Positions 3,517 to 8,437 of a stretch of 34,596 nt of DNA are shown piece after piece. The stretch comes from a virus. Lineage: Duplodnaviria > Heunggongvirae > Uroviricota > Caudoviricetes. The notes below the pieces were generated by a model. The model was not told the origin of the DNA. It searched no databases and was given only the letters and a program-made list of their open reading frames with translations. Position numbers and translations under genes: made by a program. Position 1 is the first letter of the stretch. The number at the start of each line of letters is the position of its first letter. The stretch covers positions 1-34,596 of IMG/VR virus record IMGVR_UViG_2541047860_000003; one strand, given 5' to 3'.

Positions 3517-4043
3517 TTGCGTAACTCCGATAACTCGTTAAAGCGTTCCATAAACATCCCGTAGGCATGGCCCGGTGCCAGTGGAATCACGTTGAACATC
3601 TCTGTTGCCGGGATACCTTCCAGTACAGGCCAGAAAGAGCCATCATCAAGCCCGAGATCGCGGCGTTCGGTTGCCAGCATGATGAGATCGGCATATTTCA
3701 CGGGCGTACTCATAACTGGGGGTAACCCGTATTTCTCACGGATTACGGCGTCTATTTTTTCTTCCATTTGTTTATAGTCAGGAAGAAGGCGTTTCAGTGG
3801 TGCGGGAATGTCCTGGCAATACGCTTCTGTTGCATCATGCATTAACGCTTCAAAAGCAAATTCCTGCGGCACCAGCTGGCTGCAAAGAACCGCATGTTGG
3901 GCGACGCTGTAGAAGTGCGAAAGATGACCGGCAAAGCGACAGATATTTGAAAGGGAAACCGCGATATCGTTAATATCGATGTCGTCTTTATTTATCCTGT
4001 CATAATAAAAATGCTTCCCGGAAAAAGTTTTAATAAATGACAT
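3507..4043 (-). CDS. HD-domain phosphohydrolase (YfdR-like)
   Basis: 178 aa from ATG at 4043 (SD GGAG); contains H...HD motif (HFYSVAQHAV...LMHDATEAY) typical of HD metal-dependent phosphohydrolases. Confidence 0.7.
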   Translation of the reverse strand: MSFIKTFSGKHFYYDRINKDDIDINDIAVSLSNICRFAGHLSHFYSVAQHAVLCSQLVPQEFAFEALMHDATEAYCQDIPAPLKRLLPDYKQMEEKIDAVIREKYGLPPVMSTPVKYADLIMLATERRDLGLDDGSFWPVLEGIPATEMFNVIPLAPGHAYGMFMERFNELSELRKCA

Positions 4044-4170
4044 TTTGTTCTCCACGTATATGCGCTGCACCGCGCTGAATTCTGGTAAAAAGAATCCCTC
4101 ACCATCCGGCGATTATTGAGTAAATTACGTTTCCATAAATGCCCCCGCAGGGGCATTTGCAGTAATGAAA

Positions 4171-4995
4171 TCAGGCGGTGAAAGTACCAATAAAGGTTTC
4201 TACTTTGCTGTCCTTGAATTTCTCAACAAGCAGATCACGAAATTCGTTAGCCATTTCTTCCTGCACCGCCTCCAGCTGAATAATGCGCAGAACCAGTACA
4301 GGACGATCGCCAGTGATAATACTGAGGCGTAATTTAAACGGACGTTCTTTCAGACCTTCAAACGGAACGCATTTAAATTCAAATGCCACTGGCATAATGT
4401 CTTTGGTCTTCGCTTCGACAGACTCCATCAGGGAGCGTTTGCCGCTGAAGTCATTATCTTCAAAATCAGCGGTCTGGTTTGCTTCAATCGTGATTTTACG
4501 GACAGCCGCAGCCGCTTTTGTTGCCTGAATAGCGTCACCATTAGCATCAAAGCCCACAAGATAGTCGGCCCAGTCTTCAATCCATTCTGCTAGTGACTTC
4601 TGGGAGTTACGCTCGCCGTTAACAGACAACAGAGCAGAGAACGGTGCTGTCTTTTTCAGTTTGAGTGTGGCGGTGTTATCTGCGTGACCTGGTTCATCAA
4701 TAGTACCTAGGTTAAGCACACTGACGGCACGCATATTATCAGCATCGATAAAGCAGCGGGTGCCTTCATCTGCAAGATCTTTAGAATAACGGGTAAAATC
4801 ATCGATGCTGGCAGTGGAAAGCGCACCACGGAAACGGAAGCGATTTAAATTAAATTTTTCCAGATCATGAATGCGGAAATTCTCAGGCAATGCCACAGCA
4901 TCGGCACCAATCTTACTGATAATTTCATTAACACCCTGAGCAGAAATAAGGGCATGGATTTGATTAATTGCGGTTGCGTCTAAGTTCTGAGACAT
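4171..4995 (-). CDS. YfdQ-like (DUF2303-type) prophage protein
   Basis: 274-aa ORF; size and position match YfdQ of CPS-53-type prophages by recollection; no catalytic motif recognised. Confidence 0.55.
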
Positions 4996-5060: not shown

Positions 5061-5423
5061 TTAACGACCTGCTGCGCGGAGTTTTCCGTCAGGTTCACCG
5101 GCAAGAGTCAGCAACTGTCCCTGGTCTTCCTGCAGAATAGTCAGGCGACCACCGCGATTGACATACATCGGCGTTTCGGTGGTGTCTTCTTCGGAAATTT
5201 TCCCGCGGTTAGTCGGGCGAACATATGAGAGTTTGTGTTTGATTTTCACTCGGTTCTCATCAAACGGTTCGATTTCTAGGTTGAGCGAGACCTTACCTTT
5301 GGTTTTCGTGTTCATCACACCGGAAGCGACTTCACTGAGAACTGCGCCGATTTTGGTTTCAAATACGCCGCCGTCCAGCTCCCCGATAAATGCCTGCACA
5401 TCAGTACTGCGTTCGCTAGCCAT
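5061..5423 (-). CDS. YfdP-like small prophage protein
   Basis: Start assigned to internal ATG at 5423 preceded by SD GAGGAG with 7-nt spacer; the longer 226-aa reading extends into a GC-rich hairpin region and has no RBS. Confidence 0.5.
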   Translation of the reverse strand: MASERSTDVQAFIGELDGGVFETKIGAVLSEVASGVMNTKTKGKVSLNLEIEPFDENRVKIKHKLSYVRPTNRGKISEEDTTETPMYVNRGGRLTILQEDQGQLLTLAGEPDGKLRAAGR

Positions 5424-5891
5424 TTTGCTGCTCCTCATCATATCGACCCTGCAAGGTCGGTTAGTTTCTCCACAAAACAGAGAAGAACACCTGCGGTGAC
5501 TGCCGCCCGGATGGATTGGGTTATGAGCCCGTCGTCCGGTGATGCTCTTCTCTGTTTTGTAAAAAGGACGGTACCAGCCGGAAGCAAGGGTACAAGCTGG
5601 TACCGCCAAGACTACACACAGCATAAAGTTGTGGTGCCGGGTGCCTCCCGGTGCCTGGCGAAGGTTGCACACCAGGCGGGTGGGTATCCACAGAAGGTCG
5701 ACTGTCAGCCTCAACCTTAACCCGCGTGCGCTGAGCCGCATTCACCACAACGCTAAGGATTCTCTCTGGTTGAAAATACTTAGCTGTTATGTGCCTGCTT
5801 TTAGCCACATCAGGCGAGGTGGACCTAGTTATTCCCCAACAACAAGGATTCGGTTAATCTGGTTATCCCCAACAACGCAAAAGGAAAAGAA

Positions 5892-6326
5892 ATGTCCGGT
5901 AATATCTATACGCTGTACAAATCCCACTGTGAAAATGTTGGAAAGTATCGGGGCATTGAAATCAGTGGGGTAGTGTCATCAGTCGAAATAAGCAAAGTTG
6001 AATCAAGGGCAACATTACTTACTCTTTTGGACCTTGTCTTACATGAGCACCGGAAGAAATTCGGCACTCCCTATAATCAGTTGAATGGGAAAAAGGCTCT
6101 GGTTCACCTTATTCTGATGAAGCATCACTGGATGCCAAAACAGATTAATGAGATGAAATTTGATGAACTTCTTCTTTCAATTCAGGATGAACTCACACTT
6201 GATAAAATAAGCGTAACCGCCCAGAAATTTTTAGATTATCGAGACTGGAGATCACAAATTCATCACTTTGATGATTTTGACGAAAATGAATGGGATCCTA
6301 ATTTGTCTGCACAATATCTAAAGTAA
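5892..6326 (+). CDS. Hypothetical 144-aa protein (AT-rich cargo gene in immunity region)
   Basis: ATG at 5892 with AAGGA SD; visibly AT-richer than the flanking phage genes; convergent with and overlapping the 68-aa minus-strand gene; no recognisable motif. Confidence 0.5.
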   Translation: MSGNIYTLYKSHCENVGKYRGIEISGVVSSVEISKVESRATLLTLLDLVLHEHRKKFGTPYNQLNGKKALVHLILMKHHWMPKQINEMKFDELLLSIQDELTLDKISVTAQKFLDYRDWRSQIHHFDDFDENEWDPNLSAQYLK

Positions 6327-6504
6327 CATCCTGTGATAAAACCGTGATTTCCTGATCCAGTTTTTTTAAGGAGTCTATTGTTTCCTGTCGATAAGACAGC
6401 ACTTCACGAAGCTGGTTTATAGCTGCCAGCTTCTTTGTCATCCACTCATAAATTTCCTCATCTGTGTAGCCAGGCGCGACGATTTTGGGTTCTGTTTTGT
6501 GCAT
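6298..6504 (-). CDS. Hypothetical 68-aa protein, first gene downstream of predicted PL
   Basis: ATG at 6504 preceded by GAGGAG with 7-nt spacer; predicted coiled-coil-like, not Arg-rich, so not an obvious N homolog. Confidence 0.45.
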   Translation of the reverse strand: MHKTEPKIVAPGYTDEEIYEWMTKKLAAINQLREVLSYRQETIDSLKKLDQEITVLSQDVTLDIVQTN

Positions 6505-6549
6505 TTCACATCTCCTCAAGTTATCAGTTACTTGTTGATGGGGACCAGA

Positions 6550-6561
6550 TTGTTAAAGAGC
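6550..6561 (-). promoter_or_regulatory. boxA-like element (GCTCTTTAACAA) on the leftward early transcript
   Basis: Minus-strand GCTCTTTAACAA matches 11 of 12 positions of the E. coli rrn boxA (TGCTCTTTAACAA) as recalled, 3 nt after a hairpin, between predicted PL and the first leftward gene. Confidence 0.4.
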
Positions 6562-6564
6562 TAA

Positions 6565-6586
6565 GCGTCCTGTAGGGCGCTTTTTT
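6565..6586 (+). terminator. Plus-strand hairpin plus T6 run (putative terminator for the 144-aa gene)
   Basis: GCGTCCTGTAGGGCGC followed by TTTTTT; on the opposite strand the same hairpin immediately precedes an rrn-like boxA. Confidence 0.4.
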
Positions 6587-6754
6587 GTTGCTAACGAATC
6601 ATCCTGGACTTCATATGCCCCAGGCGGCTACTTCGTGGGCGTCCTGCCTGTTCGTTTTTGACATTTACTGACTGCTTACGACACATGCACCGTGTTGCAA
6701 CCAGATTTTGTTGTAATCCTGTAGTTGGTCTGGAACAAAAGATAAAATTAAATT

Positions 6755-6796
6755 GTGAGATATGCAAGTGGTATTTGCGTGATATGCAAGTTGATA
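6755..6796 (-). promoter_or_regulatory. Putative OL/PL operator-promoter region
   Basis: Contains TTGCGTGATA, the same 10-mer present in the cI-cro intergenic region, plus direct repeat ATATGCAAGT twice; lies just beyond the cI terminator. Confidence 0.4.
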
Positions 6797-6800
6797 GGTA

Positions 6801-6823
6801 ATAAAAAGCCACCTTTCGGTGGC
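6801..6823 (-). terminator. Intrinsic terminator downstream of cI
   Basis: Minus-strand hairpin GCCACCGAAAGGTGGC followed by TTTTTAT, about 20 bp after the cI stop. Confidence 0.5.
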
Positions 6824-6842
6824 CGATGGAAGGATATTGAGG

Positions 6843-7535
6843 TTAATTATGTCTCTTAAGGGTTTGAGACTGACTGATTAAGACCTTTCCAAAGACCATG
6901 AATCGGTGTTCGTTTTCGCTAGTAATTCCCCATTCACGGTAAATCTGGTTATCAGAAATCACCAGCAGTTTGTCAGGAATCATTTGAAGTCTTTTAACGT
7001 ATATTTTGTCATCAAAACCAAAGACATATATACCATCACCATCAAACTGATTGATGCTGACATCAACGAAGATGAGATCTCCTGGCTCAATGGTTGGACA
7101 CATACTGTCCCCACGAACGTTGATAACTTTGATGTGATTGGCTGGTCGTCCGCCGAACATTGATACAGCATTATCAGTTCTGTATTCGATGGCATGAATC
7201 ACATCAATGACATCACCGCCCTGGATAAGGCCATTTCCCGCACTGGCACTGATATCCAGCATTTCAATACGGAACACATCCTTCACCTGCGCAACATCCT
7301 CATTATTACTGTTTTTATATACAGTATTACTTTTGTGGGCAGAGGTAAAGAGATCAGCAATATCAACACCTAAGCTCTTGGCAATATTACTCAGTGTTTG
7401 TTCGGTAAATTGTTTTTGCTTACCCGTTTCTAAGCGCGAGATGTTCGCCGCATCTACTCCTATTGCTTCAGCGAGATCGGCGATTTTCATGTTCTTCGCT
7501 TGGCGAAGTTGTCTGACTCGGTTTCCTATGTTCAT
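6843..7535 (-). CDS. cI: CI-type phage repressor (HTH + S24 LexA-like peptidase)
   Basis: N-terminal HTH (QAKNMKIADLAEAIGVDAANISRLETGK), Ala-Gly site (SASAGNG), S24 motifs (GDSM ... KR); divergent from cro across an operator-bearing intergenic region. Confidence 0.9.
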   Translation of the reverse strand: MNIGNRVRQLRQAKNMKIADLAEAIGVDAANISRLETGKQKQFTEQTLSNIAKSLGVDIADLFTSAHKSNTVYKNSNNEDVAQVKDVFRIEMLDISASAGNGLIQGGDVIDVIHAIEYRTDNAVSMFGGRPANHIKVINVRGDSMCPTIEPGDLIFVDVSINQFDGDGIYVFGFDDKIYVKRLQMIPDKLLVISDNQIYREWGITSENEHRFMVFGKVLISQSQTLKRHN

Positions 7536-7632
7536 GCGTTTATTACATTTCTTTATTGCGTGATAAGCAAATCAACTTGCGCAAAATAATTGCGTGAAAT
7601 AACATGCATAACGCGCAATATTTGGAGGGCGT
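7536..7632. promoter_or_regulatory. OR region with divergent PRM/PR promoters
   Basis: 97-bp cI-cro intergenic region carrying four related operator-like sites (TTGCGTGATA, TTGCGCAA, TTGCGTGAAAT, ACGCGCAAT). Confidence 0.6.
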
Positions 7633-7893
7633 ATGCAATCACCATTACGAAATGTGCGTAAGGCGCATGGTTTCACTTTGCAGCATGTTGCTGCGGGTGT
7701 TCAAGTCAATCCAGCGACGTTGAGTCGTATTGAGAGGCTGGAGCAGATTCCATCTATCGAGCTTGCAGAACGTTTAGCCAATTTTTTTAAGGGTGAAGTC
7801 AGCGAAATGCAGATTCTTTATCCGGCACGTTTTCAATCTAGCCAAAACCAGAATGGGTTTAAACCACAGGAACAGGAGGTGAACCGTGGGTAA
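7633..7893 (+). CDS. cro: Cro-like HTH regulator
   Basis: 86-aa ORF with HTH (TLQHVAAGVQVNPATLSRIE), GGAGG SD, divergent from cI. Confidence 0.75.
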   Translation: MQSPLRNVRKAHGFTLQHVAAGVQVNPATLSRIERLEQIPSIELAERLANFFKGEVSEMQILYPARFQSSQNQNGFKPQEQEVNRG

Positions 7894-8437
7894 GCATCAC
7901 TGGAAAGTAGAAAAACAGCCTGAGTGGTACGTGAAAGCTGTCAGAAAAACTATCGCAGCGTTGCCGGGGGGGTACGCTGAAGCTGCTGACTGGCTGGATG
8001 TAACAGAGCACGCATTATTTAACCGCCTTCGTGCCGATGGCGATCAGATTTTCCCGCTGGGATGGGCAATGATTTTGCAACGTGCTGGTGGAACTCACTT
8101 CATTGCTGACGCTGTGGCGCAGTCTGCAAATGGCGTCTTTGTGTCTCTTCCTGATGTCGAGGATGTGGACAACGCCGATATCAACCAACGCCTGCTGGAA
8201 GTCATTGAACAGATCGGCAGTTATTCAAAACAGATTCGTTCAGCAATTGAAGACGGTGTAGTGGAACCGCATGAGAAGACAGCAATTAACGATGAGCTGT
8301 ACCTCTCAATTTCGAAGCTGCAGGAGCATGCAGCTCTGGTCTACAAAATCTTTTGCGTTTCAGAAAGTAGTGACGCCCGCGAGTGTGCAGCTCCGGGCGC
8401 CGTGGCGTGTCGTGACTGTGGAGAAACTAACGCATGA
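7886..8437 (+). CDS. CII-like lysogeny regulator (phage 186 CII/CP76-type, by position and size)
   Basis: 183-aa ORF with GTG start after AGGAGG SD, immediately after cro; family assignment from memory only. Confidence 0.45.

Follow-up and report, generated by a model that had tools for sequence, protein, structure and literature searches.

A convergent ECs1072-family and ydfC-like gene pair beside cI in an SfIV-type prophage is a conserved module occupying an exchangeable slot

We analyzed a 34,596-nucleotide stretch of viral DNA (Caudoviricetes; IMG/VR record IMGVR_UViG_2541047860_000003, called the window here) and focused on two small genes that converge next to the repressor gene cI. A 144-residue open reading frame (ORF) with an ATG start runs rightward (5892–6326, + strand), a 68-residue one runs leftward (6298–6504, − strand), and their 3′ ends share 29 bp (6298–6326), both stop codons included. 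Both frames are in the ORF listing, in keeping with the overlapping pair described in the original prediction. The leftward frame is listed as 6298–6519 (73 residues from a TTG); starting instead at the internal ATG at 6504 yields the 68-residue product, and this ATG is preceded, at a distance of 7 nt, by the claimed GAGGAG Shine–Dalgarno sequence, which was read directly at the complement of 6512–6517. The rightward gene is indeed AT-rich, with a GC content of 0.379 as against 0.507 for the whole window. The pair proved to be a conserved module, and the explanation toward which we lean is that convergent transcription couples an accessory gene expressed in the lysogen to a partner in the lytic operon.

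The rightward gene, which is antisense to the early leftward operon, encodes a member of the ECs1072 family. The 142-position NCBIfam model NF033230 ("ECs1072 family phage-associated protein", membership cut-off 70 bits) matched residues 4–144 on model positions 2–142 with a score of 157.8 bits, and phrog_5286 covered the entire protein (1.5e-90, residues 1–144 of 144). RefSeq gives the protein the same family name. An exhaustive profile search yielded 76 representative clusters, nearly all of 143–157 residues. Alignment of 44 representatives revealed the near-invariant positions L50, R54, L64, G66, A69, H72, and W134 (window numbering), all of which are present in the window protein; there was no catalytic motif among the conserved positions. 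The AlphaFold2 model was all-helical, with a predicted local distance difference test score of 92.9, and a structure search with it returned no recognizable relative. PDB sequence profiles gave nothing better than myoglobin at an E value of 0.8, and Pfam gave no match. Family, profile, and structure searches found no DNA- or RNA-binding signature. Pairwise ratios of non-synonymous to synonymous substitution rates (dN/dS) were 0.08–0.23 for the ECs1072-family genes. Eighty IMG/VR copies contained 23 synonymous and 0 non-synonymous changes in this gene, a count that was not used as a test of selection because the copies had been selected for an identical protein.

The 68-residue protein resembles YdfC. 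It was matched over its full length by phrog_1744 (6e-35, residues 1–68 of 68), and tblastn aligned 97% of its length, at 39–41% identity, with genes annotated as ydfC in Qin-type and PPompW phages. The alignment revealed an N-terminal EPxIxxPGYTDEEIxEW motif followed by a coiled coil. None of the curated Pfam or NCBIfam models matched the protein, and the PDB profile search returned designed coiled coils only, in agreement with its description as coiled-coil-like. Pairwise dN/dS values of the YdfC-like genes were 0.18–0.23. The original prediction had made its case depend beforehand on conservation and purifying selection of the two genes; the full-length family matches and both dN/dS ranges bear this out. 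It had also proposed homology and structure searches with the two proteins, which placed both in families and returned neither a fold relative nor a defence match.

The overlap touches a conserved part of the ECs1072-family protein. It adjoins the codons TGGGATCC (W-D-P, 6291–6299) of the family-invariant Trp134, and the stop codon of the 68-residue gene (complement of 6298–6300) overlaps the Pro codon of this W-D-P. At 6291–6300, the codon of the invariant Trp (EWDP) is part of the palindrome TGGGATCC(C)A. In the ST64B and Klebsiella relatives described below, this palindrome, read on the other strand, encodes W-D-P within the tail of the YdfC-like protein; in the window, a C-to-T change in the palindrome creates the TAG stop of the 68-residue gene.

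The same arrangement was found in distant phages, with overlaps of 44–95 bp. In a metagenome contig (L010), a 52% identical ECs1072-like protein faces a 66-residue YdfC-like gene across a 44-bp overlap. At approximately 30–32% identity, an unannotated 144-residue ORF of Salmonella phage ST64B (L005, 3281–3715) converges on sb50 (3645–4004) with an overlap of 71 bp. The gene at 3818–4291 of Klebsiella phage KPP5665-2 (L006; approximately 30% identity) converges on GP45 (4197–4553) with an overlap of 95 bp. Both pairs lie between Q and the holin gene, and both sb50 and GP45 carry the YdfC motif QQPYFFNPGMTxxQLEDWL. A Pantoea P2-like prophage (26% identity) has the pair in its early (Cox to A) operon with a 62-bp overlap, and in Proteus (27%) the YdfC-like gene is present one gene further off. 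The family namesake in Sakai prophage Sp4, now ECs_5703, scored 43.4 bits against the family profile built here. It lies between cII and the replication gene O, antisense to the rightward promoter (PR), and faces a convergent plus-strand ORF with the YdfC motif (E value 3e-4 with a model that excluded that ORF). All the ECs1072-like relatives scored above the NF033230 cut-off. A blastn search of E. coli genomes with the ST64B ECs1072-like gene gave almost no matches, and one locus search for the family yielded nothing but E. coli copies with 100% identity.

The orientation of the pair is constant. In the ST64B/Klebsiella clade, the convergent partner was present in 80 of 80 IMG/VR loci (49 distinct haplotypes), 77 of which have an overlap of 71–95 bp and three a gap of approximately 100 bp. 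Q, a holin gene, or a lysozyme gene could be located in 68 of these loci, and in all 68 it lies on the strand opposite to the ECs1072-like gene. All 11 distinct contexts have the ECs1072-like gene running against the lytic operon around it, and the YdfC-like gene, where present, is co-directional with it. Four operon types carry the module: those of the leftward promoter (PL) and of PR, the late operon, and the P2-type early operon. We conclude that the convergent ECs1072/YdfC-like pair is a conserved module whose geometry is kept far beyond chance, and that both genes are real and under purifying selection. Its occurrence in PR, late, and P2-type operons means that the cI-adjacent position is not essential. 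The original prediction had overlooked two points: the 68-residue gene is a ydfC homologue, and the pair is mobile among these operon types.

These observations also bear on the simplest alternative, in which the overlap is incidental. Morons are reportedly, after Hendrix and colleagues, autonomous promoter–gene–terminator units inserted in phage operons; an antisense moron might have landed beside ydfC, after which the two drifted together without functional coupling. The variable overlap (29–95 bp, with the three gapped clade members), the solitary ydfC homologues of many PL operons, and the ECs1072 genes that have no partner would all fit such an origin. Nevertheless, the pair persists at approximately 30% identity in four operon types on different backbones, which is hard to obtain without co-transfer and selection, and the relative orientation is constant. 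We therefore regard an incidental overlap as improbable.

Two groups of relatives showed further features of the pair. In E. albertii, the ECs1072-like gene is intact and its product is only 72% identical to that of the window, whereas the convergent 68-residue gene (contig L009, 1070–1327, − strand) is near-identical over its first 50 codons and then frameshifted at the C-terminus. This contrast suggests a recombination joint near the overlap. In Pectobacterium and Lonsdalea (L092 and L093), hand translation revealed an uncalled convergent minus-strand ORF of approximately 50–56 residues that ends at the stop of the ECs1072-like gene. The two ORFs have a GVAWALSSLK segment in common and may represent a different small partner.

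The window is an E. coli lambdoid prophage of the SfIV/SfII/SfV/CPS-53 type, integrated at a tRNA-Thr gene beside proA. The cI gene (6843–7535, −; helix-turn-helix and Peptidase_S24 domains) is followed rightward by a Cro-like gene (7633–7893, +) and a CII/YmfL-like gene (7886–8437, +). A terminator scan placed the cI terminator at 6807–6824 (−), and the annotations of SfV and SfII also mark a terminator there. Next to it are two operator-like 17-nt repeats (6753–6769 and 6775–6791) that match a third copy between cI and cro (7556–7572). These matches support a leftward operator (OL) and PL where the original prediction had placed them, beside the cI terminator. The candidate PL itself (TTGCAT–17 nt–TATCTT, approximately 6739–6767, −) was read by eye and is absent from the consensus-scan output. 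The YdfC-like gene lies downstream of the OL repeats and is the first conserved gene after this putative promoter. It had been noted that no N-like protein is encoded here, and Pfam and PHROG family searches matched neither the 68-residue protein nor any other early-left protein to an N-type antiterminator family. The N-terminus of the 68-residue protein is not Arg-rich, unlike that expected of the product of an N-type first gene of the PL operon.

Leftward of the pair are yfdP, yfdQ, yfdR, yfdT, xis, and int. An STnc100-like small RNA region with a DicF-like 3′ part (5558–5781, −) follows the pair in the PL operon and lies inside a GC-rich conserved block (5447–5822). The STnc100 family (RF02076) matched it over the full model with 43.4 bits (gathering score 47; E value 1.1e-7), and DicF matched weakly at 5566–5620 (19.4 bits). 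In Klebsiella KPP5665-2, an STnc100 element (108 bits) likewise stands back-to-back with the ECs1072-like gene. A 226-residue ORF at 5061–5741 (−), annotated as SfIV_34 in SfIV, runs across the small RNA block and looks like an over-extended yfdP (5061–5405 region); the Prokaryotic Genome Annotation Pipeline calls yfdP (363 bp) and a "frameshifted hypothetical protein" in its place. At the outer end of the prophage, a tRNA gene (1369–1441, +; 71.8 bits; tRNA-Thr in RefSeq relatives) adjoins the integrase gene (1459–2622, −), and this junction marks the attachment end. One lead, transcription-termination immunity in SfV, was discarded: orf37, to which the annotation assigns the "immunity region", belongs to the rightward operon and not to the locus of the pair.

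As read from the sequence, the PL operon, with a ydfC-like gene upstream of the small RNA region, mirrors the ydfC–dicF layout of Qin. The dicBF operon of Qin/Kim (ydfA–ydfB–ydfC–dicF–dicB) likewise has a YdfC that is approximately 40% identical, is a repressor-controlled early-left operon, and continues into a DicF/STnc100-type small RNA region. It differs in that no ECs1072 gene converges on ydfC; conversely, ydfA and ydfB are absent from the window, where the ydfC-like gene comes first. The dicBF operon that contains ydfC in Qin-type and PPompW prophages is under the control of dicA. The Qin operon is toxic when expressed, and the function of YdfC itself is uncharacterized (PMC5069750).

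This toxicity is one argument for an addiction pair resembling a toxin–antitoxin system. One protein, for example a YdfC-like host-takeover factor leaking from the lytic operon, would be harmful to the host and held in check in the lysogen by the other protein or by its antisense RNA, and the pair would stabilize the prophage and have no part in exclusion. The genes travel together between unrelated operon contexts, and antisense-controlled pairs typically converge with overlapping 3′ ends. Both genes also appear to be transcribed in ST64B lysogens, as detailed below. On the other hand, no toxin–antitoxin or defence model matched, neither protein is a small hydrophobic peptide, and each gene occurs without the other. 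The E. albertii prophage, in which the partner is frameshifted and the ECs1072 gene intact, is a further argument against it. Such a pair thus seems rather unlikely to us.

Comparison with close relatives showed that the pair is one occupant of an exchangeable slot. Up to 5822 and again from 6593, SfV and SfII match the window at 95–98% identity, with unrelated DNA between. The 770-bp cassette thus delimited (5823–6592) consists of a leader, the ECs1072 gene, the ydfC-like gene, and a plus-strand terminator. It was present at full length in 408 of 5426 complete E. coli genomes (approximately 7.5%); most of the other 485 matching genomes have only the cassette ends in common. The leader (5823–5891, +) was defined by alignments, and its first 50–55 nt (5823 to approximately 5877) also precede alternative plus-strand cargo genes in two variants with only the cassette ends in common. 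One of these genes, in L095 (2571–3086, +), encodes 171 residues with a coiled coil and a Cys-rich tail (phrog_1244). Another, in L096 (2571–3074, +), encodes 167 residues (phrog_3983), the leader having 4–5 substitutions near its end. Both use the plus-strand terminator of the ECs1072 cassette as well, which brings the cargos with this leader and terminator to three, and a fourth, SfII_36, has the same conserved upstream flank. The leader is retained even where IS1 has replaced the genes. Since unrelated cargos have the leader and terminator in common, we regard 5823–6592 as one of several cargos carried by a platform that expresses genes directed against PL. The slot is independent of immunity type: cI alleles of at least two kinds accompany the cassette, and that of the window also accompanies other cargos. 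Beside the 167-residue cargo, L096 encodes a ParA-family protein (3598–4674, −) with a partial match to the PADLOC model PDC-M28B.

The leader contains a direct repeat, TTATTCCCCAACAAC and TTATCCCCAACAAC, spaced 21 nt apart within 5823–5877 and common to the three cargo genes. The repeat, partly kept in relatives with 56% and 52% identity, could serve as a site for a regulator or as an RNA element; the leader also has two GGA motifs. The terminator scan found an intrinsic terminator (6563–6582, +) at the right end of the cassette, approximately 60 nt beyond the ATG of the 68-residue gene; the hairpin and approximately 15 nt upstream of it recur in L095 and L096. Read on the minus strand, it has a C–A mismatch in the stem and no T run. 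Within the coding region of the ydfC-like gene, 82 nt past the ECs1072 stop, is a second plus-strand terminator-like hairpin (6408–6433), and hairpins occupy the equivalent position in ST64B (3760–3780) and KPP5665-2 (4326–4342). With these two plus-strand hairpins, the rightward RNA should overlap much or all of the 68-residue gene in antisense. On the minus strand, a weak terminator-like hairpin (6208–6223) within the ECs1072 coding region, 75 nt past the stop of the 68-residue gene, could limit read-through from PL.

The 144-residue gene shares several features with morons, namely its own terminator, deviant composition, presence or absence between near-identical phages, antisense orientation, and an orthologue expressed in the prophage. 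The module departs from them in its second gene, which is part of the lytic transcript running the other way, and in having a leader and terminator common to several cargos.

The slot also bears on the possibility that the pair regulates the phage itself. The ECs1072 protein, the antisense transcript, or both would then tune the lytic operon that contains the gene, for example by damping leaky PL, PR, or PR′ transcription or delaying commitment, with no role against other phages. The module always directly follows a switch point, which is PL in the window, the Q-dependent terminator in KPP5665-2, and cII in Sp4, and the first PL gene would face an antisense RNA from the plus strand. The YdfC-like ATG of KPP5665-2 (4454) has a strong late-strand terminator (4499–4474) immediately upstream, which makes the YdfC-like gene the first one past the Q-dependent terminator and parallels its position after PL in the window. 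The same probably holds for ST64B, where an equivalent hairpin was seen by eye only and is absent from the terminator-scan list. Owen et al. rated the ST64B orthologue, STMMW_20121, as a candidate accessory or regulatory gene (PMC7067206). Against this, the slot takes unrelated cargos, and SfV and SfII have no such pair, so that the pair is dispensable for the basic switch of the phage; the absence of a DNA- or RNA-binding signature in the ECs1072 protein points in the same direction. We give a regulatory role a low probability.

Expression could be assessed through ST64B. According to Owen et al. (2020), STMMW_20121 has its own transcription start site and is transcribed in almost all lysogenic conditions (PMC7067206). 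Their Table S5 lists it at 2090066–2090500 (435 bp), next to the holin gene, and STMMW_20131 at 2090430–2090789 (PMC7067206). The 71-bp overlap and the holin neighbor identify these two genes as the ECs1072-like/sb50 pair. This locus resembles that of the window in its two families, its convergent 3′ overlap, and an ECs1072-like gene antisense to lytic genes. It differs in its identity of approximately 32%, its location between Q and holin rather than beside cI, its 71-bp overlap, and its partner of 85 residues, counted from the conserved start. From the data of that study, we obtained median values in lysogens of 113 transcripts per million (TPM) for STMMW_20121, 93 for STMMW_20131, and 3.7 for both the holin gene and sb49 (PMC7067206). 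A promoter-like sequence (TTGAAA-16-TATGAT, ST64B L005 4038–4011) ends 7 nt from the annotated start of STMMW_20131. In lambda, PR′ is constitutive. The STMMW_20131 signal may likewise be a constitutive short RNA of the PR′ type. A Sakai array study recorded a 2.1-fold change of ECs1072 at a growth transition.

In the window, a conserved motif (GTGCCTG-N-CCAC-N2-CAGGC-N-GGTGG; 5791–5822, +) marks the left-flank edge of the cassette. It recurs 45–50 nt upstream of the ECs1072-like genes of Proteus, Pectobacterium, and Lonsdalea (in L091–L093, approximately 45–80 nt before the ATG), as well as upstream of the SfII and SfV cargos. In the relatives it aligns with a promoter-like TTCACC/TTGCCA-N16-17-TATCTT, read by eye and not a tool result. 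The motif is conserved at the nucleotide level among E. coli, Proteus, Pectobacterium, and Lonsdalea, and its arms could form a pseudoknot-like pairing or a protein site. By-eye promoter candidates for the 144-residue gene in the window were weak and were rejected.

With the above results in hand, we return to the explanation introduced at the outset. In the lysogen, the ECs1072 gene would form an independent rightward transcription unit pointing against PL and, by orthology with ST64B, would be expressed. On induction, the YdfC-like gene, co-directional with PL, would give the first product once cI repression is lifted. The converging transcripts would overlap by at least 29 bp of coding sequence, and by approximately 110–260 nt should rightward transcription stop at 6433 or 6590. 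Because the units converge and overlap, strong PL transcription would make YdfC-like protein and run antisense through the ECs1072 gene, the expression of which would fall through collision and RNA duplex formation. The "built-in switch" of the original prediction would follow from this geometry. Reciprocal regulation, an interaction between the proteins, the promoter position in the window, and a biological activity are inferred. The proposed lysogen-expressed gene directed against PL thus agrees with the architecture and with the transcription of the ST64B orthologue; a promoter for it was not found in the window.

Several observations weigh against this explanation. The sigma-70 consensus scan returned no promoter for the 144-residue gene in the window, and the −10 position that is good in the relatives reads ACCTAG in the cassette type of the window. 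The transfer of expression from ST64B spans approximately 32% identity, albeit above the family cut-off. STMMW_20131 reaches approximately 93 TPM in lysogens and correlates weakly with STMMW_20121 (rho 0.37), so both genes may be on in ST64B lysogens. A YdfC-like partner was not detected in 3 of the 11 contexts (L008, Pectobacterium, and Lonsdalea), and ydfC occurs alone, without ECs1072, in Qin-type operons. Taken with the conserved geometry, these points leave coupling of a lysogen-expressed accessory gene to a lytic-operon partner somewhat on the probable side.

As to function, the ECs1072 protein may act in the lysogen on phage–phage or phage–host conflict, through superinfection exclusion, defence, or host modulation, and the YdfC-like protein may be its lytic-phase counterpart, neutralizer, or partner. 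A more specific version is a two-component prophage system in which a lysogen effector excludes or defends against other phages and the lytic-operon partner confers self-immunity on induction, with reciprocal expression hard-wired by the converging, overlapping transcripts. We consider this version speculative, with perhaps a modest chance of being correct. Its logic is similar to that of BstA/aba, from which it would differ by using a protein partner and a module portable to any lytic operon. PADLOC, Pfam, and structure searches lent no support to an exclusion or defence activity; the PADLOC-DB v2 defence models matched 0 families for both window proteins and for the ST64B pair.

The original prediction had likened the locus to those of rex and sieB genes. 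Like lambda rexAB, sieB, and bstA of BTP1, the 144-residue gene is near the immunity region, is expected to be expressed in the lysogen, and belongs to a region with variable content between related phages. The likeness is positional only. Neither sequence nor fold similarity to these genes was found, and Pfam, PHROG, and PADLOC returned no match of the protein to RexA, RexB, or SieB. The rexAB and bstA genes follow cI on its own strand, and sieB likewise reads leftward. The 144-residue gene lies outside the cI operon, beyond OL/PL, faces the opposite way, and is not known to have an exclusion phenotype. BTP1 has cI and bstA side by side, each at high expression (PMC7067206).

Both families had been catalogued before, and the expression of one orthologue was published; Owen et al. 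mention neither the partner relationship nor the ECs1072 family (PMC7067206). The pairing, its unchanging polarity in four operon types, and the slot with a common leader appear to be new: they were not found in the searchable literature, where ECs1072 and STMMW_20121 are barely mentioned and ydfC is called uncharacterized. The cI-proximal slot with its common leader and terminator is a cargo exchange site in E. coli SfII/SfIV-like prophages, and relatives of the module occur in Salmonella, Shigella, Klebsiella, Proteus, Pantoea, Pectobacterium, and enterohaemorrhagic E. coli prophages. A conserved convergent module with one member on in lysogens and the same polarity in every operon type is a well-defined experimental target. 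It could reveal prophage functions of conflict or self-control, and it could show how opposing transcription couples gene expression to the lysogenic–lytic decision.

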